DNA of 64,000 nt, from the NCBI RefSeq assembly GCF_056712565.1, contig NZ_CM160072.1; one strand, 5' to 3'. The notes under the pieces were generated by a model. The model made no database searches and was not told the DNA's origin. It worked only from the letters and a program-made list of their open reading frames with translations. The position numbers and the translations under genes are program-made. Of this stretch, positions 1 to 35,208 are shown in pieces. The first letter of the stretch is position 1. Every line of letters starts with the position of its first letter.

Positions 1-736
1 CTTCGTAAAGCTCTTTACTGATAGGGATGCTTCTGTTTTTCTTCCCCTTCGTTCTGACAAAGGTAATTCGGTATTTGGTCACCTGTGAGCGGGTAAGATT
101 TACGGCTTCACGCCAGCGTGCGCCTGTGCTTAAGCATATCTTAACTACCAGTGCCAGAATTGGGTCCTGACGTTTGCAATCAGCCAGCAATTCAACAATC
201 TGCTCATGGGTAAGCCATGCCATCTCTTTTTCTGCGATGGTGAATTTTCGCATGTTCTCCAGTGGGTTCGGATACGACCATTCGCCCAGACGGGATAGTT
301 CGCTAAAAACACTACTTAGATAGCTTTGCTCCAGGTTAATGGTGACCGGGCTTGCTCCTTTCTTCCATTTCTCGCTGAAGTAGATCTCGCCTGTCAGGCG
401 TTTATCTCGATAATGGGCAAACATTTTAGAGGTGAGATCGGTTGCAAGAGGATTGCCCAGAGCGTCAACCATCAACAGCAATTTGTCATAGACATGCTGC
501 CCAGCTGTCAGAGATTTACCATGTAGTTTGAACCATAGCTCAACCACGTCTTTCAGTGTTCGACGATCCACTGATTCACCCAGCCAGGGCTTTGCTTCGG
601 TTTCTTCCATCGTGTGGCGCTCAAAAGCCAGTGCTTCGCCTTTGGTGGCGAATTGTTTACGCACACGACGCCCACTTCGTCCGGCGGGGTAACATTCGCA
701 AAGCCATTTCCCAGTGGTGAGTTTTCGTACTGCCAT
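1..736 (-). CDS. int: Phage integrase (tyrosine recombinase, P2 family); 3' end of gene lies beyond window start
   Basis: Reverse-strand reading from ATG at 736: MAVRKLTTGKWLCECYPAGRSGRRVRKQF...; ORF runs off position 1; position next to the immunity region. Confidence 0.85.
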   Translation of the reverse strand, partial: MAVRKLTTGKWLCECYPAGRSGRRVRKQFATKGEALAFERHTMEETEAKPWLGESVDRRTLKDVVELWFKLHGKSLTAGQHVYDKLLLMVDALGNPLATDLTSKMFAHYRDKRLTGEIYFSEKWKKGASPVTINLEQSYLSSVFSELSRLGEWSYPNPLENMRKFTIAEKEMAWLTHEQIVELLADCKRQDPILALVVKICLSTGARWREAVNLTRSQVTKYRITFVRTKGKKNRSIPISKELYE

Positions 737-924
737 AAAAAATGCCCTCCAGTAGAGAGCATTTTTACTGTATGTATAACCAGTGTCAATGTATGAAATC
801 CTACGACCATACATCTCACTGAAGCCATAATGAAGTTGGCTATTCTTTTTGCTATGTGAGCATGTAACTTTTGCGGTTAACCTGCGGCTCATTTTTATTT
901 TAGACGCAGATATAAAAGCAAAAG

Positions 925-1116
925 TTATCGTGAGTTTTTAGTACAGATTTTTTTGGATTTACTAATAGTTCCATCATTGCAAACAAATTTTCCATCGGAG
1001 GTACAGTGAGAGACACCTCCCTTTTTCCCAGAACAAGGATAATTTTTAGCATAGGTAGTTAGTGGGCTTAATAACAAAGAGCATGATAAAACCACAAAAA
1101 ATACTTTACCAAGCAT
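925..1116 (-). CDS. Small secreted Cys-rich protein (63 aa), hypothetical
   Basis: ORF-track protein with N-terminal hydrophobic signal-like segment and six cysteines; AT-rich DNA between int and cI. Confidence 0.4.
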
Positions 1117-1131
1117 AGTTTCCTCCCGGTA

Positions 1132-1701
1132 TTATCTAACATATTTAACTGTTAAACTTATAATTTTACCAATTATTTCAATGTCTTCTATCTTACATTC
1201 GAAGGCTCTGTTTCCACCCTCGACGAAGATTCTTCCACCGGGTAAACGAGTAATGTCACGGATCGTTACTTCGCCATCAATACTTATTACCCATTTACCA
1301 TCACGTATGTCATCAAATTCTTTATCACAAATAAATTCAGAATTGTTATCTGTGATGACAAAAGGTTTTTTAAACGTAGAGGGTAGAAATCCCTTATCAA
1401 AAATATAAAAACCGTCTTCACGCAAGGCACCATCAGATAATACATATTTAGCAACTTCCATAGTATTTGTATTACCTGAAGTTTGCTTTGAACCATGTCC
1501 GGTTGTGAGCCAATTAAGCGAGGTGCCCGTTTCAAGGGCGCACTGGATTACCCATTCTGCTGGGAATGAGTCACGCATGTAGCGTGTGGCGAGTGTACTT
1601 TTAGAGATTCCTAAATGATCGCACAACGCCTGTCGAGTCTTGAATCCATAAGCTTCTACCATGCGCTCTATGGCGCCTCGTCCGCCTTTCTCCAAATTCA
1701 T
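1132..1701 (-). CDS. cI: CI-type immunity repressor (HTH DNA-binding); start placed at internal ATG 1701 (track ORF extends to 1806)
   Basis: HTH-like segment QALCDHLGISKSTLATRYM; divergent to apl/cII as in phage 186; choosing ATG 1701 leaves a 125-bp switch region. Confidence 0.65.
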   Translation of the reverse strand: MNLEKGGRGAIERMVEAYGFKTRQALCDHLGISKSTLATRYMRDSFPAEWVIQCALETGTSLNWLTTGHGSKQTSGNTNTMEVAKYVLSDGALREDGFYIFDKGFLPSTFKKPFVITDNNSEFICDKEFDDIRDGKWVISIDGEVTIRDITRLPGGRIFVEGGNRAFECKIEDIEIIGKIISLTVKYVR

Positions 1702-1826
1702 GGTCACTCCAAGTGAACTTTTATCTTGACGATTTCGCCGTGCGATCGTATGTTTATGGTGTTCACAAAATACAAACGATCCGTATTCGTCCTGATTAAT
1801 CATCATTAAACGAGGAATGTTGCATC
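1702..1826. promoter_or_regulatory. Putative divergent early promoter/operator (lysis-lysogeny switch) region
   Basis: Intergenic between divergent cI and apl; contains inverted repeat AGTGAAC ... GTTCACA and TTGACG / TATGTT promoter-like hexamers. Confidence 0.35.
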
Positions 1827-2048
1827 ATGAGACCTAACATTTCAATCACTCTTACCACGCCTCATGTGACTATTGAACGCTATAGCGAGCTGACAGGGCT
1901 ATCCATCGATACCATCAATGACATGTTGGCTGATGGACGCCTTATCCGTCACCGTCTGCGCAAAGATAAAAAACGCGAAAAAGTGATGATCAACATAGCA
2001 GCAATGACCGTTGATGCGCTTTCAGAATGCAATCTAAACCTTAATTAG
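1827..2048 (+). CDS. apl: Apl/Cox-like excisionase / early transcriptional regulator (73 aa)
   Basis: First gene of the rightward early operon, divergent from cI; small basic protein. Confidence 0.55.
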
Positions 2049-2074
2049 TTCGATTCTGAAATACATCAGAGGCA

Positions 2075-2590
2075 TTGACCATGTTTGATTACCAAGTTTC
2101 CAAACATCCACATTTTGATGAAGCCTGTCGTGCATTTGCACTGCGCCACAATCTGGTGCAACTGGCAGAACGTGCAGGCATGAATGTGCAGATTCTGCGG
2201 AACAAGCTGAACCCAGCTCAGCCTCATTTATTAACCGCACCAGAAATCTGGCTGCTTACCGATCTGACTGAAGATTCAACGCTGGTAGATGGTTTTCTGG
2301 CACAGATTCATTGTCTGCCATGTGTACCGATTAATGAGGTGGCAAAAGAGAAACTGCCACATTACGTCATGAGTGCAACCGCAGAGATCGGGCGTGTTGC
2401 TGCAGGTGCGGTGTCTGGCGATGTAAAAACCTGTGCCGGTCGTCGTGATGCTATCAGCAGCATTAACTCTGTAACACGACTGATGGCGCTGGCTGCTGTT
2501 TCATTGCAGGCCCGTTTACAGGCTAATCCTGCGATGGCGAGTGCAGTTGATACCGTGACTGGCCTCGGTGCTTCATTCGGTTTGCTGTGA
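2075..2590 (+). CDS. cII: CII-like lysogeny-establishment regulator (171 aa)
   Basis: Second gene of early operon; size and position as 186 cII. Confidence 0.5.
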
Positions 2591-2597
2591 GGTGCTT

Positions 2598-2894
2598 ATG
2601 CTGACGAAAGAACCATCATTTGCATCGCTGCTGGTAAAACAAAGCCCGGCAATGCACTACGGTTACGGCTGGATCACGGGTGAGGATGGAAAACGCTGGC
2701 ATCCATGTCATTCACAAGATGAATTGCTGTCTGAATTGACCACGAGGAAACGGAGAAAGTCCAAATGTATGCGGCAGAAAGTGAAGTGGTTTATCAGTTT
2801 CGTTACAGAGGGGAGAGTTATTCAGTACCTGAAGATGATTTGCTCTGTTGCTATCCGTCATTGTCGGGAGATGGCAGTTACTTTTTCACGTTAA
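2598..2894 (+). CDS. Hypothetical early protein (start uncertain; overlaps next ORF)
   Basis: ORF-track frame from ATG 2598 directly after cII stop. Confidence 0.3.
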   Translation: MLTKEPSFASLLVKQSPAMHYGYGWITGEDGKRWHPCHSQDELLSELTTRKRRKSKCMRQKVKWFISFVTEGRVIQYLKMICSVAIRHCREMAVTFSR

Positions 2895-2989
2895 AGGATG
2901 GGACGTTTTTACGGGGAGAGCAGGTTAAAGAGACGATACGAAAAAATGTATCTCCTCTTGAGCGTTACCGTAAGAACAAAGAACGATAG
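2765..2989 (+). CDS. Hypothetical early protein (74 aa)
   Basis: ATG 2765 preceded by GGAG; in early operon. Confidence 0.4.
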   Translation: MYAAESEVVYQFRYRGESYSVPEDDLLCCYPSLSGDGSYFFTLKDGTFLRGEQVKETIRKNVSPLERYRKNKER

Positions 2990-3011
2990 CTGCGTTTGGG
3001 GAATATGAAGT

Positions 3012-8615: not shown

Positions 8616-8659
8616 CGTAGATCATGCTCCTGCATGAAAACCACTACATAAAGCGGGCA

Positions 8660-8678
8660 GGCGTGGCGGGGATACGAG
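8660..8678. other. Putative cos (cohesive-end) site of the prophage
   Basis: GGCGTGGCGGGGATACGAG resembles the 19-nt P2/186 cohesive-end sequences as I recall them (GGCGTGGCGGGGA...); lies upstream of portal Q as expected. Confidence 0.45.
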
Positions 8679-8692
8679 CGCGCGCTTGCACC

Positions 8693-8721
8693 TTGATATT
8701 CACGGTTTGGTTAAGTATTGT
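8693..8721 (+). promoter_or_regulatory. Putative sigma70 promoter of the protease operon
   Basis: TTGATA - 17 bp - TATTGT, about 40 bp upstream of ATG 8762. Confidence 0.35.
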
Positions 8722-8761
8722 CTTAGTCAGAGTCCATAACATATTACAGAATGGAGTTGTT

Positions 8762-9409
8762 ATGATTGGTCCTGAATATGTCGTAGTTGTTGGCGTGCTT
8801 AATGCAGGTTTGGTTAGTTTTTTAGGAACAGGTTTTTTTATTTCTAAGGATAAAATAATTACTTCCCGCCATGTTATTAATGGGTTTTCTTCTAACTTAG
8901 TTATTTCTCCATCTAATATAAATAACTTTAATAGTTATCAGGATACAAGTGTTGATAAATTTCAATGTATTGGAGTTGATGTTATTGATGAAGATCCAAT
9001 AAAAGACTTATGTGTGTTAAAAATTAAAAATGCACCTGTTTATGAACCTTGCCTAAAAATTGCTACTCTTGACGATGTTAATGTCGGTGAAGATGTGGGT
9101 ATTTTAGGTTTCCCACATTGTAATGAAAATAGAAAAGTATTGACATTTCAAACGGCAAAAATAGGTGCAAAAGTTTTACTTTCAAGCAGTAATATTCAAT
9201 CTAAACATGCCGTTATAAATATCCAAACCAGACCTGGTCAATCGGGATCGATTGTATTTAATTTAAAAAATGACTCGGTAATAGGCGTCTTGGTTGGCGC
9301 TTATGCAAATAATTCTGGAGGTTCTGTTTTGGTTGGAGGTATTAATCCAGCTGAACTACATCAGACAACTTATGCGGTTTCTGCAGAATATGTTAAGGAT
9401 ATGTTATGA
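8762..9409 (+). CDS. Trypsin-fold (S1/chymotrypsin-like) serine protease, 215 aa; accessory cargo
   Basis: Catalytic triad contexts in order His (ITSRHVING), Asp (DLCVLKI), Ser (RPGQSGSIVF); GGAG RBS; very AT-rich; track ORF 5' extension to 8624 would cross cos. Confidence 0.8.
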   Translation: MIGPEYVVVVGVLNAGLVSFLGTGFFISKDKIITSRHVINGFSSNLVISPSNINNFNSYQDTSVDKFQCIGVDVIDEDPIKDLCVLKIKNAPVYEPCLKIATLDDVNVGEDVGILGFPHCNENRKVLTFQTAKIGAKVLLSSSNIQSKHAVINIQTRPGQSGSIVFNLKNDSVIGVLVGAYANNSGGSVLVGGINPAELHQTTYAVSAEYVKDML

Positions 9410-9852
9410 TTGCTATACCAAATGAAGATGCTGAGTCTTGGTTGTCCACTTTAAAAACGTATCAATCTTCATCTGTCAGGAATTTTCTCGAAAATGGCGA
9501 TGAAGAAAAGGCTCTTGAGCTATGGCTAACTGCATCTGGCCCAAGTTCAGTTGCTCAATTTGGCGGTGATAATTCAAAAATGCCGGGAAGAAAAGCGTTT
9601 GTTGAGCAGTTTAAATTAGAGTTTAAGGCTTTTGTATGTGGAGGTGATAAATATGCAGAGGAGAGGGAATGTTTAGGAGCACTGACTGGTGATGTTAAAA
9701 CATACTTTGTAGGGGTGATCTCTTCGGCAATTGCGGGTTCTTTGGGGGCAACAGCAACATTTATTGCTCCAGCTGTAGTAATTATGTTGATAGCTGTCTC
9801 AAAAATGGGAATTAATGCTTGGTGTTCATTAGAGACAACGACAGAATCTTAG
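9406..9852 (+). CDS. Small protein (148 aa) with C-terminal hydrophobic membrane anchor; partner of the protease
   Basis: ATGA start/stop overlap with protease gene (translational coupling); C-terminal segment YFVGVISSAIAGSLGATATFIAPAVVIMLIAVS is hydrophobic. Confidence 0.7.
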   Translation: MIAIPNEDAESWLSTLKTYQSSSVRNFLENGDEEKALELWLTASGPSSVAQFGGDNSKMPGRKAFVEQFKLEFKAFVCGGDKYAEERECLGALTGDVKTYFVGVISSAIAGSLGATATFIAPAVVIMLIAVSKMGINAWCSLETTTES

Positions 9853-17965: not shown

Positions 17966-19924
17966 ATGATAGTAGGGATTTTTTTAAGGTATTTTAAAAC
18001 ATACAACGGAAATCATTACATACCGTTATCTTCTGGAAGTCAGTTTTGTGGAATTGTTGGTAACAATGGAATTGGCAAAAGTTCTGTTCTTGAGGCTTTA
18101 GATTCGTTTATTAATAACAAACCATGGAATATTAATTCTTCATTTAAAAGAACCTCCAGTGACAGACCTTCTCCACATATTGTTCCTTTATATCTTATAA
18201 AGCGAGAGGAATTACATGAAGATCATCATGCTAAAGCTGAAATCTTAACGCAATTAGTATTAGAATATAGCAATAGTAATGCTGATGTTACATTGACGCC
18301 AACAACACGAAATATAATTAATACGTTTTTTGAACATATTAACAAATTAAAAAGAAATTTAAATCTCCAAGATTATTTTTTGATCCCTCTGGGTGTCGAG
18401 AAAGATGGTGATGTAAGTATTTCGATTCTTAATGGGAAGAGTTTATGTCGACTTTTGGAGGTTGATAATCCCGATAATAAAGTTTCGAGCGAGTTGCTTA
18501 GTAAGCACTTTGGGTATTTATTACATCATGTCCGCCATAAGTATGAATATATATATATTCCAAAGGATATAGACTCTGAATCGTTTACGAAGCTAGAAAC
18601 AAGTGAAGTACAAAAGTTGATGGGTGAGTCTTTAGAGCAGATAATTAAAGATAGAATATCTGATAGAACCATAAGTCAAATCAATACAGGGCTTGCCAAA
18701 TTTCTGGATGGTGTTGAAGAGGAGCTTGAAGAATATGGTTATAGAACATCTGGCGAGAGACAATCGCGATTAAAAAAGAAAGATGTTTATAATTTGATTA
18801 TCGAAGCATTCTTCAAAGTTAGGAAATTAAATAAAAAGCAGAATTCAGGTTGGATTGAAATTAGCTCGCTAAGTTCAGGGGAGAAGCAACGTGCAATAAT
18901 GGATATTGCATATGGGTTTCTTACCAATCATAGAGAAAATGGCGATAATCTGATTATTGGAATTGATGAGCCAGAATGTTCTCTTCATATGTCTGCATGT
19001 TTTGAACAATTTGAAAAGCTCTATTCTATTAGTGGTATATGTGAACAATTAATATTTACTTCACATTGGTATGGCTATCTTCCAACCGTCGAAAATGGAT
19101 GTACCACAACTATCCTTAAAACAGATTCAACTCATCATTTTGAATTATATGATCTTGCCAGTTATAGAGAAGAAGTCAGGAAGAAAGTAAAAACCTCTTC
19201 CCCGGGTATGCCATTTGATATAAAAATAAAAAGTGTAAATGACCTTATACAATCCATAATATCTAGCTGTTTGGCTGAGAAACCTTACAATTGGTTGATT
19301 TGTGAGGGTACTACAGAAAAAATATATCTTTCGCATTATCTAAAGGACTTGGTAGAAAATAAAAGGCTAAGGATTGTGCCTGTAGGGGGAGCTAGTGAAG
19401 TTAAAAAAATATTTAAGCATTTAGAAGCTTCTTATGAAGAGTTCAAAAAAGACCTCAAAGGAAAAGTGTTCTTACTAACCGATACAGATTCAGAGTTGGT
19501 GTCATATGATACCCCAGTTATGCCGCATGTTGTTTGTAAGCGAATTGTTAGTGTAGGTGATTCAGTGAAGTTGGTTGATATTTCTTCCAATCCAGTTTCT
19601 CCTGCAACAGAAATAGAGGATTGTCTTAATCCTGTATCGTTTATAGAGGCTTTAACATCATTTTCTTCACGTTTTCCTGAGCTTCAGGCATTGCTGCCTA
19701 ATAGTAATGTTATGATAGATGAAAGACATTCATCGTTTGCTGCGATGGATTTGTCACCCAAGAACAAAAAAACGCTTGATGCTTTTTTTGACCGTGAAGG
19801 AATTAAGTTTGATTTTTCAAAGGAATATATTTCAATCTGTGAGCGAAATGAGCGGAAAAGGCCAGAGTGGATTGCCAAAATTGAAAATTTTTTTATAAGT
19901 GATAAACCTGTAAAGTTTAATTGA
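17966..19924 (+). CDS. OLD-family ATP-dependent nuclease (ABC ATPase + TOPRIM), 652 aa; accessory defence-type cargo
   Basis: Walker A GNNGIGKSS, ABC signature LSSGEKQ, Walker B LIIGIDEPE, H-loop FTSHW; C-terminal TOPRIM-like WLICEGTTE and LLTDTDSE; same motif layout as host YbjD in this window; AT-rich. Confidence 0.85.
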   Translation: MIVGIFLRYFKTYNGNHYIPLSSGSQFCGIVGNNGIGKSSVLEALDSFINNKPWNINSSFKRTSSDRPSPHIVPLYLIKREELHEDHHAKAEILTQLVLEYSNSNADVTLTPTTRNIINTFFEHINKLKRNLNLQDYFLIPLGVEKDGDVSISILNGKSLCRLLEVDNPDNKVSSELLSKHFGYLLHHVRHKYEYIYIPKDIDSESFTKLETSEVQKLMGESLEQIIKDRISDRTISQINTGLAKFLDGVEEELEEYGYRTSGERQSRLKKKDVYNLIIEAFFKVRKLNKKQNSGWIEISSLSSGEKQRAIMDIAYGFLTNHRENGDNLIIGIDEPECSLHMSACFEQFEKLYSISGICEQLIFTSHWYGYLPTVENGCTTTILKTDSTHHFELYDLASYREEVRKKVKTSSPGMPFDIKIKSVNDLIQSIISSCLAEKPYNWLICEGTTEKIYLSHYLKDLVENKRLRIVPVGGASEVKKIFKHLEASYEEFKKDLKGKVFLLTDTDSELVSYDTPVMPHVVCKRIVSVGDSVKLVDISSNPVSPATEIEDCLNPVSFIEALTSFSSRFPELQALLPNSNVMIDERHSSFAAMDLSPKNKKTLDAFFDREGIKFDFSKEYISICERNERKRPEWIAKIENFFISDKPVKFN

Positions 19925-22527: not shown

Positions 22528-23930
22528 GCACAAAATTTTATACCCTGCTGACGGATATTGGCGCGGCGAAACTCGCCAGCGCCGCCGCGCTCGGTGTGCC
22601 TTTAAAAATTACCCATATGGCGGTCGGCGATGGCGGCGGAACATTGCCAACGCCGGACGCCAAGCAGACAGCATTGGTAAATGAGAAACGCCGGGCTGCG
22701 CTGAATATGCTCTATATCGACCCGCAGAACAGCAGCCAGATTATTGCTGAACAGGTGATCCCTGAAAATGAGGGTGGTTGGTGGATACGTGAAGTGGGCC
22801 TGTTTGATGAGTCCGGGGTATTGATTGCCGTGGGAAACTGCCCGGAAAGCTATAAGCCGCAACTGGCTGAAGGCAGCGGGCGTACCCAGACCGTGCGCAT
22901 GGTGCTGATTACCAGCAGTACGGACAATATCACCCTGAAAATCGACCCTGCTGTAGTACTGGCAACTCGCAAGTATGTGGATGATAAGGCACTGGAGCTG
23001 AAGGTGTATGTGGATGACCAAATGGCAAAACACCTTGCCGCAGCGGACCCACATTCACAGTATGCGCCAAAAGCCAGCCCGATATTTACCGGAACCCCCA
23101 AAGCGCCGACGCCAGCGGCGGGGAATAATACCACGCAACTTGCGACCACCGCGTTTGTTCAGGCGGCACTGACGGCCCTTATTAATGGTGCGCCAGCCAC
23201 GCTGGACACGCTAAAAGAAATAGCCGCAGCCATTAACAATGATCCGAAATTCAGTACCACCATTAACAATGCGCTGGCACTGAAAGCGCCGCTGTCGAGT
23301 CCGGCACTCACCGGAACGCCAACAGCCCCTACTGCCGCACAGTCGGTTAACAATACACAGATTGCCACTACGGCTTTTGTGAAATCGGCGATTGCAGCAA
23401 TGGTGGGGTCTGCACCTGCGGCACTGGATACATTGAACGAACTGGCGGCGGCGCTGGGGAATGACCCGAACTTTGCCACGACAATGCTTAATGCGCTAGC
23501 AGGTAAACAACCGCTGGACAATACGCTGACTAATTTGAGTGGAAAGGATGTTGCTGGTCTTCTCGCATACCTTGGTTTAGGAGAAGCGGCGAAAAGGGAT
23601 GTGGGCACAGGAGATAATCAGATACCGGATATGTCTTTCTGGTCTTCCGCATCGGGTGGCGTTAATTTCCCTAATGGATTCCAGATGCGATTCGGTGCTA
23701 TCGCTGGTAATGGTGGAAAATTATTTTCTACGCCATTTACAAATCAGTGCTATGGCATTGTTTTCGGACAAACATATGGAGCCAACTACTGGATGTTCAG
23801 CCCGATGTACAGAGCATCTGATCTGAGTAATACCAGTTTTGCATTCATTAACAAAGCCTGGTCTGGAATTCCGGGGACAGGTGCTCAGGACGCTGGTGAA
23901 TCAGTTTTTTATATTGCAGTAGGGTATTAA
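22524..23930 (+). CDS. H: Tail fibre protein gpH (constant N-terminal part joined to currently expressed variable C-terminal part)
   Basis: 468 aa with Ala/Thr-rich repeats (TTAFVQAALTAL, TTAFVKSAIAAM); crossover site inside the gene. Confidence 0.85.
   Translation: MSTKFYTLLTDIGAAKLASAAALGVPLKITHMAVGDGGGTLPTPDAKQTALVNEKRRAALNMLYIDPQNSSQIIAEQVIPENEGGWWIREVGLFDESGVLIAVGNCPESYKPQLAEGSGRTQTVRMVLITSSTDNITLKIDPAVVLATRKYVDDKALELKVYVDDQMAKHLAAADPHSQYAPKASPIFTGTPKAPTPAAGNNTTQLATTAFVQAALTALINGAPATLDTLKEIAAAINNDPKFSTTINNALALKAPLSSPALTGTPTAPTAAQSVNNTQIATTAFVKSAIAAMVGSAPAALDTLNELAAALGNDPNFATTMLNALAGKQPLDNTLTNLSGKDVAGLLAYLGLGEAAKRDVGTGDNQIPDMSFWSSASGGVNFPNGFQMRFGAIAGNGGKLFSTPFTNQCYGIVFGQTYGANYWMFSPMYRASDLSNTSFAFINKAWSGIPGTGAQDAGESVFYIAVGY
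23560..23585. other. Inversion crossover site (gix/hix-like), left
   Basis: TTCTCGCATACCTTGGTTTAGGAGAA fits the Din-invertase site pattern TTnTCnnAAACCnnGGTTTnnGAnAA (one mismatch); inverted copy at 25351. Confidence 0.6.
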
Positions 23931-23931
23931 T

Positions 23932-24375
23932 ATGGAAATGGTTTATAGCGCCTCAAATAATAGTTTTTTCGCTAAAAATGATGTGGCGAAATATGAACAG
24001 GCCGGATGGGAACTTGCTGATATTGTCGAAGTGACATATGACACTTACCTGGAATTTATTGAAGACAGAACGTTGCAAGGGAAAGTACGCATCGCGGGTG
24101 ATGATGGCCTTCCCACCTGGGGGGAAATTCCACCGCCAACTCATGAGGAACAAATTGCCGCAGCCGAACTGGAAAAGCAGCAATTGATTAATCAGGTCAA
24201 CGAATACATATACAGTAAGCAATGGCCTGGTAAAGCAGCGATTGGTCGCCTGAAAGGTGAGGAACTGGCGCAATATAATTTGTGGCTGGATTATCTGGAC
24301 GCACTGGAACTGGTTGATACCTCCAGTGCTCCAGATATTGAATGGCCTACGCCTCCGGCAGTTCAGGCCAGATGA
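23932..24375 (+). CDS. Tail fibre assembly protein (orientation-1 copy)
   Basis: 147 aa ending ...DIEWPTPPAVQAR, like Tfa chaperones; follows H. Confidence 0.75.
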   Translation: MEMVYSASNNSFFAKNDVAKYEQAGWELADIVEVTYDTYLEFIEDRTLQGKVRIAGDDGLPTWGEIPPPTHEEQIAAAELEKQQLINQVNEYIYSKQWPGKAAIGRLKGEELAQYNLWLDYLDALELVDTSSAPDIEWPTPPAVQAR

Positions 24376-24949
24376 CGTCCGGCGCTGTGCTGGTATCTGT
24401 TGCCGTCACCGCATCAATGTAATCCAGCACAGCGTTAAGTCGGGTGTTTTCTGTCTGCGTCAGCTTCCGCCCGGCCTGCAATTTCAGTTGAATCAGACTA
24501 ATGGAAGCCATTGCAGTATCAATCAGTGACTGACGCTGTGCTTCTGCCGCGTCTAGTGTGGCGCTATGCTGTGCCTCAGTATCTGTCACCCATTTCTCAC
24601 CATCCCATTCATCGTATGGCGTTAACGGGGCGATAGTGGTTGTATTTTCAGGGTAATCACCTGGTGCTGTGATTTCTTTTGATTCTCCTGTTTCGGTGCT
24701 AAAAACGATTTCACCGCGATGGTCTGGCACATATTCCCATGAGTTAAAATCTGCAGAACGGCAGATTGCATAACCAGCTTTACATGTAACTGGTGAATCT
24801 AAACAGGAATATGCAGGGATACCGACACCAATGGCAAGATATTCATTTGAAGTAGAAATATATTCCCGAGTTTTACCATCATAGTTATAGACGGTAATAT
24901 TCCCCGCCTTCGTGGCAATAATCTCGCTATTTAATACGGCGTTATCCAT
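24347..24949 (-). CDS. Tail fibre assembly protein (alternative, orientation-2 copy)
   Basis: 200 aa; C-terminus ...APDVIWPELPEA mirrors the other Tfa; opposite strand inside invertible segment. Confidence 0.7.
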   Translation of the reverse strand: MDNAVLNSEIIATKAGNITVYNYDGKTREYISTSNEYLAIGVGIPAYSCLDSPVTCKAGYAICRSADFNSWEYVPDHRGEIVFSTETGESKEITAPGDYPENTTTIAPLTPYDEWDGEKWVTDTEAQHSATLDAAEAQRQSLIDTAMASISLIQLKLQAGRKLTQTENTRLNAVLDYIDAVTATDTSTAPDVIWPELPEA

Positions 24950-25404
24950 TATGCAGCCCTTACGATATAGTTAAATGCAATATTTCGTGGACGGGTTTCG
25001 CTTCCGCCATATGATGATGTAAATCCCGAATATGCCCGGTGTCCCGCATCCGTCGTATTAGCCCAGGAAGGACCGCTAGAAGTATAGATGACCCCATTGT
25101 AATCATGGCCGTGTGCCTCAATGCTCCCGTCCTGAGCAGACAGGAGAGTCCGTCCTGAATCAATTCCTCTTCCATCATCCCACCCACGAATGAATTCGCC
25201 GCGTAAATCTGGCAATTTATTTGTCGGATAAACTTTTGCCAGTTCCGGATACTCTTCGGCAGAAAAAGCTGCACCGTTGCATTTCAGCCAGCCTGTTGGC
25301 GGTGTGACTGAAGGCCACGGAACAGGCACACCTACGGGTAATGCAGAGCCTTCTCCTAAACCAACGTTTAAGAAAATGCAGCGATTACGACTAACTGGCA
25401 TCAT
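24949..25404 (-). CDS. Alternative tail-fibre C-terminal variable segment (expressed after inversion)
   Basis: 151-aa minus-strand ORF; shares GLGE junction with H at the crossover site. Confidence 0.7.
   Translation of the reverse strand: MMPVSRNRCIFLNVGLGEGSALPVGVPVPWPSVTPPTGWLKCNGAAFSAEEYPELAKVYPTNKLPDLRGEFIRGWDDGRGIDSGRTLLSAQDGSIEAHGHDYNGVIYTSSGPSWANTTDAGHRAYSGFTSSYGGSETRPRNIAFNYIVRAA
25351..25376. other. Inversion crossover site (gix/hix-like), right
   Basis: TTCTCCTAAACCAACGTTTAAGAAAA; inverted repeat of the site at 23560; adjacent to invertase gene. Confidence 0.6.
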
Positions 25405-25431
25405 CCCCGGTTTTTATTCAAGGAGATGATC

Positions 25432-25998
25432 ATGCTTATTGGCTATGTACGCGTGTCAACAAATGACCAGAACACCGATTTGCAACGTAGTGCGCTGAAC
25501 TGCGCGGGATGTGAGCGGATTTTTGAGGACAAAATCAGTGGCACTAAGTCCGACAGACCGGGGCTTAAAAAACTGCTCAGGACACTATCGGCAGGTGACA
25601 CACTGGTTGTCTGGAAGCTGGACAGGTTGGGGCGCAGTATGCGGCATCTTGTTACGCTGATAGAAGAGTTGCGCCAGCGCGGCGTGAATTTCCGAAGTCT
25701 GACTGACAGTATTGATACCAGTACCCCAATGGGCAGTTTCTTTTTTCATGTCATGGGTGCCCTGGCTGAAATGGAACGCGAACTGATAGTTGAACGTACC
25801 AGGGCAGGGCTGGCTGCAGCTCGTGCTAAAGGCAGAGTAGGTGGACGCCGTCCTAAGTTGACTACCGAACAGTGGGCACAGATTGGGCGTTTACTCGAGG
25901 CCGGAGAATCAAGACAGCGTATTGCACTGATTTTTGATGTAGGCGTTTCTACCATTTATAGAAAATTTCCGGCAAATAAGAGCAATGAATCTCCCTGA
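25432..25998 (+). CDS. Serine DNA invertase (Gin/Pin/Hin family)
   Basis: MLIGYVRVSTNDQNTDLQR...VVWKLDRLGRSM... nearly collinear with Mu Gin as I recall it; catalytic Ser in YVRVST; AGGAG RBS. Confidence 0.9.
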   Translation: MLIGYVRVSTNDQNTDLQRSALNCAGCERIFEDKISGTKSDRPGLKKLLRTLSAGDTLVVWKLDRLGRSMRHLVTLIEELRQRGVNFRSLTDSIDTSTPMGSFFFHVMGALAEMERELIVERTRAGLAAARAKGRVGGRRPKLTTEQWAQIGRLLEAGESRQRIALIFDVGVSTIYRKFPANKSNESP

Positions 25999-26046
25999 AT
26001 CAGCTTTATTTTGATTATCCCTGAAAGCAGACAAATACCGTCATTT

Positions 26047-32978: not shown

Positions 32979-33068
32979 TTCTTCGCAATGGAGAACTTTT
33001 AAGTTTGCAAAATGGAATAATACGGTATCATTGTTGTGAATTTAGCAAAAATGGGGAGAACTCGAAAA

Positions 33069-33287
33069 ATGATGATTTGCCCACTGTGTGGAAGTGCCGC
33101 CCATACTCGCAGCAGTTTTCAGGTATCTTCATTGACCAAAGAGCGTTATAACCAGTGCCAGAACATTAACTGCAGCCATACTTTTGTTACCCATGAAACT
33201 TTTGTTCGTTCGATTGCAACACCAAAAGAGTCTAATCCAGTTCAGCCGCATCCAATGAAATCAGGACAGGTGGCGCTCTCTCTTTGA
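33069..33287 (+). CDS. ogr: Ogr late-gene transcriptional activator (zinc finger)
   Basis: MMICPLCGSAAHTRSS...CQNINCSHTF: Cys4 zinc-binding pattern as in P2 Ogr; last prophage gene. Confidence 0.8.
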   Translation: MMICPLCGSAAHTRSSFQVSSLTKERYNQCQNINCSHTFVTHETFVRSIATPKESNPVQPHPMKSGQVALSL

Positions 33288-33365
33288 CGCTGCCGCCATT
33301 TTGTCGCCATCGTTAAAAAACAGTGCTTCTAACATCATGATTTTAAACATCTTAAATTTCAGGCA

Positions 33366-33410
33366 ACAAAAAACCCATCAACCTTGAACCGAAATGGCGG
33401 GGTTGATGGG
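33366..33410 (-). terminator. Hairpin with T-tract on minus strand; ybjL terminator and/or part of the prophage-host junction
   Basis: CCCATCAACC ... GGTTGATGGG inverted repeat, A-run on plus-strand 5' side. Confidence 0.4.
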
Positions 33411-33522
33411 CTCCACAAAATGGGGACATCAAAGAAAAGCAGTGGCACTAATTAAGACTGATGCCCTGCGGAAAAGTTCTGCGGTTGTGCAAAAAAATTT
33501 CATTTTCAGGGCAACTTCAGTT

Positions 33523-35208
33523 TTATCCTAATCCTGGCCATACCATGACGATGATTGTCCCTGCCAGCGTCAGCAGGACGTTGGCGATTGCATAGGTGCC
33601 CGCATAGCCCAGCGCCGGGATGTTACTGCGAGCTGTATCACTGATGATCTCCATTGCCGGCGCGCAGGTGCGTGCGCCCATCATTGCGCCGAACAACAGT
33701 GCGCGGTTCATTCGCAATACATAAGCACCGAACAAGAAACAGATAACCACTGGCACAAGACTGACAATCAATCCGGCAATCAACATCTGACCGCCAATCG
33801 CGCCTAGGCCGTTATTAATACCGCTACCGGCGCTCAGACCAACGCCTGCCATAAACACCATTAAGCCGAACTCTTTCACCATGCTTAATGCACCCTGCGG
33901 AATGTAACCGAAGGTCGGGTGGTTAGCGCGCATAAATCCCAGCATAATTCCGGCGAATAACAACCCGGCAGCGTTCCCCATGCCGAAACTGAATGTGCTG
34001 AACTGGAAGGTGATCATCCCGATCATCAGCCCAATAACAAAGAAGGCGCAGAATGCCAGCAAGTCAGTGACCTGGCTGTGAATCGAGATAAAGCCGATGC
34101 GATCGGCGATGGTTTTTACGCGACGGGCATCGCCGCTGACTTGTAAAACGTCACCTTTGTTAAGCACGACGTTGTCATCTATCGGCATCTCAATCTGGCT
34201 ACGAATGACGCGGTTAAGGAAGCAACCGTGATCGGTCAACTTCAGTTGTGCGAGACGTTTGCCCACGGCGTTATGGTTTTTAACGACCACTTCTTCAGTG
34301 ACGATACGCATGTCGAGAAGGTCACGATCGAAAACTTCTTTGCCGTTACGGAAGCTGGGATCGAGTCGTGCGTGGGCGTCGGGATAGCCTACCAACGCTA
34401 TTTCATCGCCCATTTGTAGCACAGCATCACCGTCTGGATTCGCCAGAATCCCGTTACGTCGAATACGTTCAATGTAGCAGCCAGTTTGTCGATAAATACC
34501 CAGTTCACGCAGATTTTTGCCGTCGGTCCAGGCCACCAGCTCCGGGCCGACGCGGTAGGCGCGGATCACCGGTAAATAAACCTTACGGTTGGCATCAGTG
34601 TCCAGGCCACGTTCGCGGGCGATTTGCTGGGCGCTGGTCTGTAAGTCCTGATGCTGCAATTTCGGCAAGTAACGCGCACCAACAATCAAACTCACCAGAC
34701 CGATTAAATAGGTTAAGGCATACCCGAGGCTCAGATTATCCAGTGCCAGTGAGAGCTGCCTGCTTTCCATGCCGGAATGACGCAGTGTATCGCCAGCACC
34801 GACCAGAACCGGTGTCGACGTCATAGAGCCAGCTAACATACCGGCCGTCAGGCCAATATCCCAGCCAAACAGCTTACCTAACCCTAAGGCGATCACCAGC
34901 GCACTGCCAACCATCACCAGTGCTAACATTAGGTAATTTTTCCCATCGCGAAAAAAAATGGAAAAAAAGTTCGGTCCGGCTTCGACCCCGACGCAGAAAA
35001 TAAACAGCATAAAGCCAAGATTAAGCGCGTCGGTGTTAATGCTGAAATGTTGTTGGCCTAATAACAGCGATACGACTAAAACGCCAATGGAATTACCCAG
35101 TTGGATCGAACCAAGTCGTAATTTCCCGAGACATAGCCCAAGCGCGAGGACCACAAATAATAACAGAATGTAATTCCCATTTAACAATTCGGCGACGTTT
35201 ATATTCAC
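33523..35208 (-). CDS. ybjL: Putative transporter YbjL (AAE family, two TrkA-C domains)
   Basis: 561-aa membrane protein; recognised as K-12 ybjL by sequence and synteny. Confidence 0.9.

Follow-up and report, generated by a model that had tools for sequence, protein, structure and literature searches.

Genes and features between ogr and ybjL

We analyzed a stretch of DNA of 64,000 nucleotides (the window), in which a gap of 235 bp (33288-33522) separates the last phage gene, ogr, from the host gene ybjL. The original prediction placed a prophage-host junction in this gap, with the attachment site attR left unresolved, and both limits (the end of ogr at 33287 and the 3' end of ybjL at 33523), the size of the gap, and the presence of the junction were borne out, with attR located there. 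Two further statements were not: that host genes begin at ybjL, and that the junction lies immediately downstream of that gene. The gap itself contains a host small RNA (sRNA) gene, rybB, and the phage entered at the 3' end of rybB. The genes and host elements around the junction are as follows:

33069-33287 (+): ogr, 72 aa, activator of the late genes and the final phage gene ahead of attR (Pfam Ogr_Delta, E=5e-22; RefSeq annotation in the lysogen SF-468)
33368-33446 (-): rybB, sigma-E-dependent, Hfq-binding sRNA gene, intact (mapped from the K-12 annotation b4417; RF00110)
33372-33412 (-): rho-independent terminator hairpin of RybB, with a 12-bp stem and then U6 at 33368-33373 (fold, inverted repeat, and Rfam structure line)
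33453-33480 (-): predicted sigma-E-type promoter of rybB, with the -35 element AGAACTT at 33474-33480, a 16-nt spacer, the -10 element TCTTA at 33453-33457, and +1 at 33446
33523-35208 (-): ybjL, host transporter gene beyond rybB (ORF list; K-12 and SF-468 annotation)

The RybB sRNA (Rfam RF00110) was identified at 33365-33443 on the minus strand with a score of 105.3 bits (gathering score 40) and E = 2.4e-22. The match covers the model from end to end (positions 1-79 of 79) without truncation, and no other Rfam family was detected anywhere in the 64 kb. In K-12, rcdA (ybjK) and ybjL flank rybB, which shares the ybjL strand; in the lysogen, rcdA has been moved to the far side of the prophage. 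Zero mismatches to K-12 were found from 33365 to 33669, an interval that covers all of rybB, its promoter region, its terminator, and the spacer up to ybjL, and therefore rybB and its promoter region are unchanged. RybB is characterized by Hfq-dependent repression of outer-membrane-protein mRNAs, and its 5' seed sequence (GCCACUGCUUUUCUUUGAUGUCCCC) is identical to that of K-12. The sigma-E promoter consensus is GGAACTT-N16-TCTGA, and the predicted promoter (AGAACTT-N16-TCTTA), read directly against this consensus, ends 7 nt upstream of the rybB +1 in the region identical to K-12.

The inverted repeat at 33374-33410 that had been noticed in the gap was recovered, with arms at 33374-33383 (CCCATCAACC) and 33401-33410 (GGTTGATGGG) that are complementary at 10/10 positions with 17 nt between them; we estimate that ~0.005 perfect 10-bp inverted repeats at such short spacing are expected per 235 bp. 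This repeat is the terminator hairpin of RybB and is host DNA. Folding of the minus strand gave -25.2 kcal/mol (z = -2.6), and only the last 5 nt of the terminator 3' arm fall within the att core described below. A consensus promoter and terminator scan of 33000-33700 on both strands reported no terminator, probably because the 17-nt loop exceeds the scan's loop limit of 8. We do not read this null result as absence of a terminator, as the fold and the Rfam match show one. Two gap ORFs, at 33394-33531 (45 aa) and at 33461-33595 (44 aa), were considered as genes and rejected, given their overlap with rybB, the rybB promoter region, and the 3' end of ybjL, and given that K-12 has the identical sequence but no annotated coding gene from rybB to ybjL.

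The importance of the locus is chiefly one of annotation, with a gene-by-gene reading showing a featureless junction beside ybjL. PGAP/RefSeq carries no rybB feature in SF-468, IHE3034, EC12, O157:H7 PA20, and 55989, despite sequence identity to K-12 b4417. Annotation-based scans would present the att site at rybB as "intergenic next to ybjL."

The attR core and reconstruction of attP

The original prediction had K-12 without a prophage at ybjL, and in MG1655 rcdA, rybB, and ybjL are indeed contiguous. When the window was aligned to this prophage-free genome at ybjL, the two sequences showed no relationship to the left of the core and agreed fully from the core to the right. The original prediction was also right that attL lies left of the window; the 26-bp core occurs once in the window (33353, +), and int is cut by the left window edge. 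It further held that the core could not be defined without attL, but an empty-site genome, the attP of a free phage, and the attL of an identical lysogen together place it at 33353-33378. The elements of attR are as follows:

33288-33352: P arm of attR, phage-derived, from the ogr stop codon to the core; homologous to Klebsiella phages KP12 and 4LV2017 and absent from K-12
33290-33309 (+): 20-bp arm repeat CTGCCGCCATTTTGTCGCCA, candidate arm-type site of the integrase (Int), with a second copy in the P' arm inside the int 3' end, off the window
33330-33342 (-): weak IHF-consensus-like site AATCATGATGTTA, matching 8/9 specified positions in a consensus scan of the reconstructed attP
33353-33378: attR core TAAATTTCAGGCAACAAAAAACCCAT, 26 bp, identical to the attL core of SF-468
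33365-33378: segment AACAAAAAACCCAT that must contain the strand-exchange (overlap) region, 14 bp, the sole part of the core common to all attB alleles

The right edge of the core (33378) is the end of homology to the attP of the free phage KP12, and the left edge (33353) is the end of identity to attL. The 4LV2017 record contains an annotated 19-bp attR, equivalent to 33360-33378. Together, the KP12 attP, the attP rebuilt with the SF-468 attL (described below), and the 4LV2017 annotation fix the core edges independently of the window's own attL. We read attL from SF-468 and not from the source genome of the window, the site being ~400 nt off the window. SF-468 has zero mismatches to window positions 1-3000 and is 100% identical over 33000-33800. 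Its attL core is found at window-equivalent positions -416 to -391, that is, 391-416 nt left of the window, between rcdA and int, with the order int, a 104-bp spacer, and then rcdA. The stretch common to this attL and to attR is exactly TAAATTTCAGGCAACAAAAAACCCAT, which forms a direct repeat at both prophage ends. The attL of the window's own genome is predicted to read, in order, the rcdA stop codon, TAGA, the 26-bp core or a variant with the host allele in its left 12 bp, TTATGTAAACGGG, and the int 3' end.

Phage KP12, with its source given as sewage and a 100% identical Int, carries ogr, attP, and int in one piece. An attP rebuilt from the left arm of the window's attR, the core, and the right arm of the SF-468 attL matched KP12 at 321/331 positions without gaps. 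The two copies of the 20-bp arm repeat are 183 bp apart and 95% identical in the KP12 attP, and the same pair is present in the reconstructed attP. Besides the 20-bp repeat common to both arms (CTGCCGCCAYTTTGTCGCCA), the P' arm holds a tandem 18-bp repeat. The 20-bp repeat and the tandem P' repeats are putative Int arm-type or IHF sites. The best matches in an IHF search of attP reached only 8/9, and these sites are kept as weak candidates.

Three other sequence relationships around attR were examined and set aside. The hairpin AACCCATTTAtgTAAACGGGTT at the core edge of attP and attL was rejected as a palindrome of Int core sites, as its center falls beyond the right-hand limit of attP/attB identity. 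The P-arm repeat (33293-33301) and the RybB terminator loop (33392-33400) are complementary over 9 nt, which is compatible with chance, with ~0.3 such 9-mers expected per 400 nt by our estimate, and a 74% direct repeat (33345-33363 and 33492-33510) was judged likewise.

Crossover segment and attB alleles

We read the empty sites of K-12, 55989, IHE3034, EC12, and O157:H7 PA20 base by base. Prophage-free K-12 and 55989 carry TAAGTTTTAGATAAC followed by AAAAAACCCAT at attB, and prophage-free IHE3034, EC12, and O157:H7 PA20 carry TAAATTTCAGGCAAC followed by AAAAAACCCAT, which is the phage core. The dimorphism is confined to the left 12 bp of the core (33353-33364), where TAAGTTTTAGAT or TAAATTTTAGAT stands against TAAATTTCAGGC with 3-4 differing positions. 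The host allele TAA[A/G]TTTTAGAT is kept in the attL of E. coli W, strain 64, STEC005, Z1323HEC0108, and 98234. In the E. coli W lysogen, attL reads TAAATTTTAGATAAC... (host type) and attR reads TAAATTTCAGGCAAC... (phage type). Among these 5 lysogens with a heterologous allele, attR was read individually in E. coli W alone; the attR sites sampled from lysogens in general agree with the phage-type core. This reciprocal pattern of attL and attR indicates that exchange occurs right of the polymorphisms, within AACAAAAAACCCAT, and on sequence comparison the 5 lysogens with a K-12- or W-type host allele place strand exchange within 33365-33378. The gene rybB reaches into the att core with its last 11 nt (AUGGGUUUUUU), which make up 11 of the 14 nt of this segment. 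An exact core and a 14-bp crossover segment allow clean prophage delimitation, curing, and PCR typing at rybB.

Empty sites comprised ~2,590 of the K-12/W type and ~1,490 (~37%) identical to the phage, with these allele counts estimated from bands of identity and from rows sampled at even spacing. In O157:H7 PA20, a K-12-like rcdA flank adjoins the phage-type core. Where prophage-free genomes carry the phage-type allele, it might be a footprint of past phage traffic, left by phage-to-host transfer downstream of the sRNA terminator through non-canonical resolution, but we regard this as unlikely; the alternative is an ordinary host polymorphism that was once copied by the phage. In E. coli strain 3150, the attL belongs to a diverged phage relative at the rybB site, with a core edge of AAAAAACCCAC joined to TTATCTAAATGGATT and an int region that is ~94.6% identical. 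The altered core edge and the diverged int of this strain indicate that more than one Int/attP variant uses rybB.

Integration at the 3' end of rybB

Taken with high confidence, the gap is the attR of a ~33.8 kb P2-like prophage (Peduoviridae) integrated at an attB that overlaps the 3' end of rybB. The tyrosine integrase would have recombined attP with attB at this end of the gene. The phage attP carries a 26-bp copy of host sequence, consisting of the final 5 nt of the stem of the RybB terminator, its U-tract, and a further 15 nt downstream. As the phage core duplicates the end of rybB, integration rebuilds an unchanged rybB at attR. At attR, rybB has its full length and the K-12 sequence, and attL holds just the duplicated 11-nt 3' end, a pattern of RNA-gene reconstitution. 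The landing pad of the phage is a conserved sRNA terminator, and the sRNA gene is left intact.

The spacer between rcdA and ybjL could instead be the target, the overlap with rybB being incidental, and the arithmetic of the core gives this some footing: only 11 of its 26 positions are in rybB as annotated in K-12, and the other 15 are in the 19-nt spacer from the rcdA stop codon to the rybB 3' end. We nonetheless consider an intergenic target very improbable, given that the invariant segment bearing the crossover (AACAAAAAACCCAT) is rybB 3' end in 11 of 14 nt, that the same phage group uses rybB in Klebsiella, and that phages classically enter structured RNA genes at the 3' end and reconstitute them (Williams 2002, cited by PMC10121019 and PMC3603311).

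Disruption or truncation of rybB, which would leave lysogens without the sRNA, could be suspected from a junction inside an annotated gene and from RefSeq/PGAP lysogen annotation that has no rybB feature. PGAP, however, also omits rybB in the 4 empty-site genomes inspected, and thus the missing feature reflects an annotation habit; with a full-length Rfam match (positions 1-79 of 79) and zero K-12 mismatches over 33365-33669, covering the 79-nt gene, the promoter region, and the terminator, disruption is already refuted at the sequence level and has almost no probability left. Equally implausible, and in our reading already refuted by the empty-site alignments, is an inverted repeat at 33374-33410 that is phage-encoded (an ogr terminator or an Int core-binding palindrome) and brought by the prophage, as its position 87 nt beyond ogr, a plausible place for a terminator, is outweighed by the identity of both arms in prophage-free K-12, 55989, IHE3034, EC12, and O157:H7 PA20, by free-phage homology that ends at 33378 and covers just 5 nt of the left arm, by the lack of a T-run after the plus-strand hairpin, and by the Rfam RybB model, which explains the hairpin fully.

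In attL and attP, the core segment that supplies the end of the RybB terminator folds with a different partner, pairing with the P' arm (AACCCGUUUA...UAAAUGGGUU) to form a 9-bp hairpin followed by U6 (-9 kcal/mol). The hairpin folds in attL and attP are modestly better than those of shuffled sequence (z = -2.1 and -1.75, respectively), and strain 98234 has a variant in which a G-U pair is replaced by A-U. This hairpin would terminate the leftward cI-orf63-int operon, and if it does, phage and host would share the 3' half of a terminator. Excision would need a small Apl/Cox-like protein encoded at 1827-2048, for which no Pfam match was found, and this copy of the prophage may still be mobile. 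No evident plus-strand terminator was identified between ogr and rybB. Transcription from ogr could possibly run antisense through rybB and couple late-gene activation to RybB output.

Distribution in E. coli and related systems

The original prediction had named as its counter-case phage-like genes that are core at this locus in reference genomes. We identified the empty site, an uninterrupted rcdA-rybB-ybjL, in ~78% of complete E. coli genomes (4227/5426). The ogr-rybB-ybjL junction was present in 1114 of the 5426 genomes, approximately one fifth, and the rcdA-attL-int junction in 1032. These presence and absence counts show that the phage genes are accessory and not core.

Coliphage P2 encodes a tyrosine Int that uses arm sites, and its prophage has int beside attL, ogr beside attR, and a core of ~26-27 bp. 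The window prophage shares with P2 (attP/locI) the order of the end genes and the short core, but the two differ in Int specificity, immunity region, and target gene. Among the matches listed in the Int search, no named P2, 186, or Fels-2 record exceeded 60% identity. A megablast of the junction against a phage collection returned Klebsiella and Salmonella records only, with no named E. coli virion isolate having this att region. The record ON470620.1 ("Escherichia phage vB_EcoM-813R9") contains host rcdA and ybjJ beyond int; these host genes mark it as an excerpted prophage with flanking host DNA, as opposed to the genome of a packaged phage.

The use of rybB as a site by P2-like prophages is already known and is an ordinary arrangement, and the result at this junction adds no new biology. 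Archer et al. 2011 described the "rybB ncRNA" site of the P2-like prophages Rybb*W, Rybb*B, and Rybb*Cr in E. coli W, B, and Crooks, respectively, with Rybb*B carrying retron Ec86 (PMC3032704). The E. coli W prophage (Rybb*W) has the same insertion site, int type, ogr protein, and attR sequence as the window prophage; its junction is 99.6% identical to window positions 33000-33800, and its attR core is identical. The host attB allele of E. coli W differs, and as a result its attL and attR cores differ from each other at 3 positions. The cargo also differs, with a KAP NTPase and a GmrSD-like protein in E. coli W and a candidate PDC-M35 pair and an OLD/AriA-like ATPase in the window.

Outside E. 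coli, the Klebsiella phage 4LV2017 (Peduoviridae, Elveevirus) has ~96% DNA identity over ~72% of the first 25 kb of the window, and the Int proteins of 4LV2017 and KP12 are 99.4-100% identical to that of the window prophage. The KP12/4LV2017 group has a one-base core difference (KP12 ...CAGACAAC) and a different sequence just left of the core. Hudson et al. 2014 described a Klebsiella prophage-like island, Kpn38RybB, "precisely within" the RybB gene (PMC4048246). As in the window, integration of 4LV2017, KP12, and Kpn38RybB is at rybB, whereas the host genus and the hotspot cargo differ.

In the survey of Hochhauser et al. 2023, hotspot #29 comprises only Felsduovirus prophages in rybB, with up to two defense systems each at dedicated positions (PMC10121019). 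That hotspot was occupied in 109 genomes in >1,300 strains, compared with the junction in 1114/5426 genomes here, and the window prophage has two cargo positions of this kind. The label "Felsduovirus" of hotspot #29 differs from the ICTV assignment of 4LV2017 to Elveevirus. Genes for sRNAs in general have been discussed as phage targets by Bobay et al. 2013 (PMC3603311), and examples across the literature (PMC3603311, PMC3333887, and PMC3032704) include cyaR/ryeE in E. coli and ryeB/sdsR in Salmonella.

Gene content and cargo of the prophage

At the other end of the prophage, the window opens within int:

1-736 (-): tyrosine integrase gene, 5' part, 245 codons (Pfam Int_N, 1.8e-32; Phage_integrase, 2.5e-9)

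The gene runs off the left window edge, and ~316 nt of it are missing along with attL. The visible Int is identical at 245/245 aa to the SF-468 integrase (WP_000290937.1), and the full 350-aa int adjoins attL in both SF-468 and E. coli W. Gene order is of the P2 type, including int, repressor, replication, portal/terminase/capsid, tail, D, and ogr (RefSeq annotation in SF-468 and W), with an immunity region that is 186-like (CI, CII, Fil, and an Apl-like gene).

A cargo pair was identified at 8624-9852 (+), between the DinI-like and portal genes, encoding a 261-aa S1-peptidase-like protein and a 148-aa protein that match A and B of the PADLOC candidate defense system PDC-M35 (E = 8e-94 and 4e-58, respectively). 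E. coli W has a GmrSD-like gene at this position, and the differing cargo indicates a variable cargo hotspot. A second cargo hotspot lies at 17966-19924 (+), between the virion-morphogenesis (gpS-like) and baseplate V genes, where the window encodes a 652-aa AAA ATPase and E. coli W has a different, minus-strand gene. In PADLOC this ATPase matches AriA (1e-21) and Old (2e-11) best, pointing to an OLD/PARIS-like ATPase-Toprim protein. Between cI and int, a 63-aa ORF at 925-1116 (-) encodes several cysteines behind or within a hydrophobic N-terminus and is a hypothetical gene in the SF-468 annotation; it had no Pfam or PADLOC match, and E. coli W encodes a KAP P-loop NTPase at its position.

In the tail-fiber region (~23900-26000), oppositely oriented tail-fiber-assembly genes stand beside a serine-recombinase-family gene at 25426-25998 (+), an arrangement that suggests an invertible host-range switch. 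The SF-468 prophage differs from that of the window by ~790 bp somewhere between cI and ogr, as determined by coordinate mapping and not by alignment, and we attribute this difference to the tail-fiber region because SF-468 has an extra partial pseudogene there.
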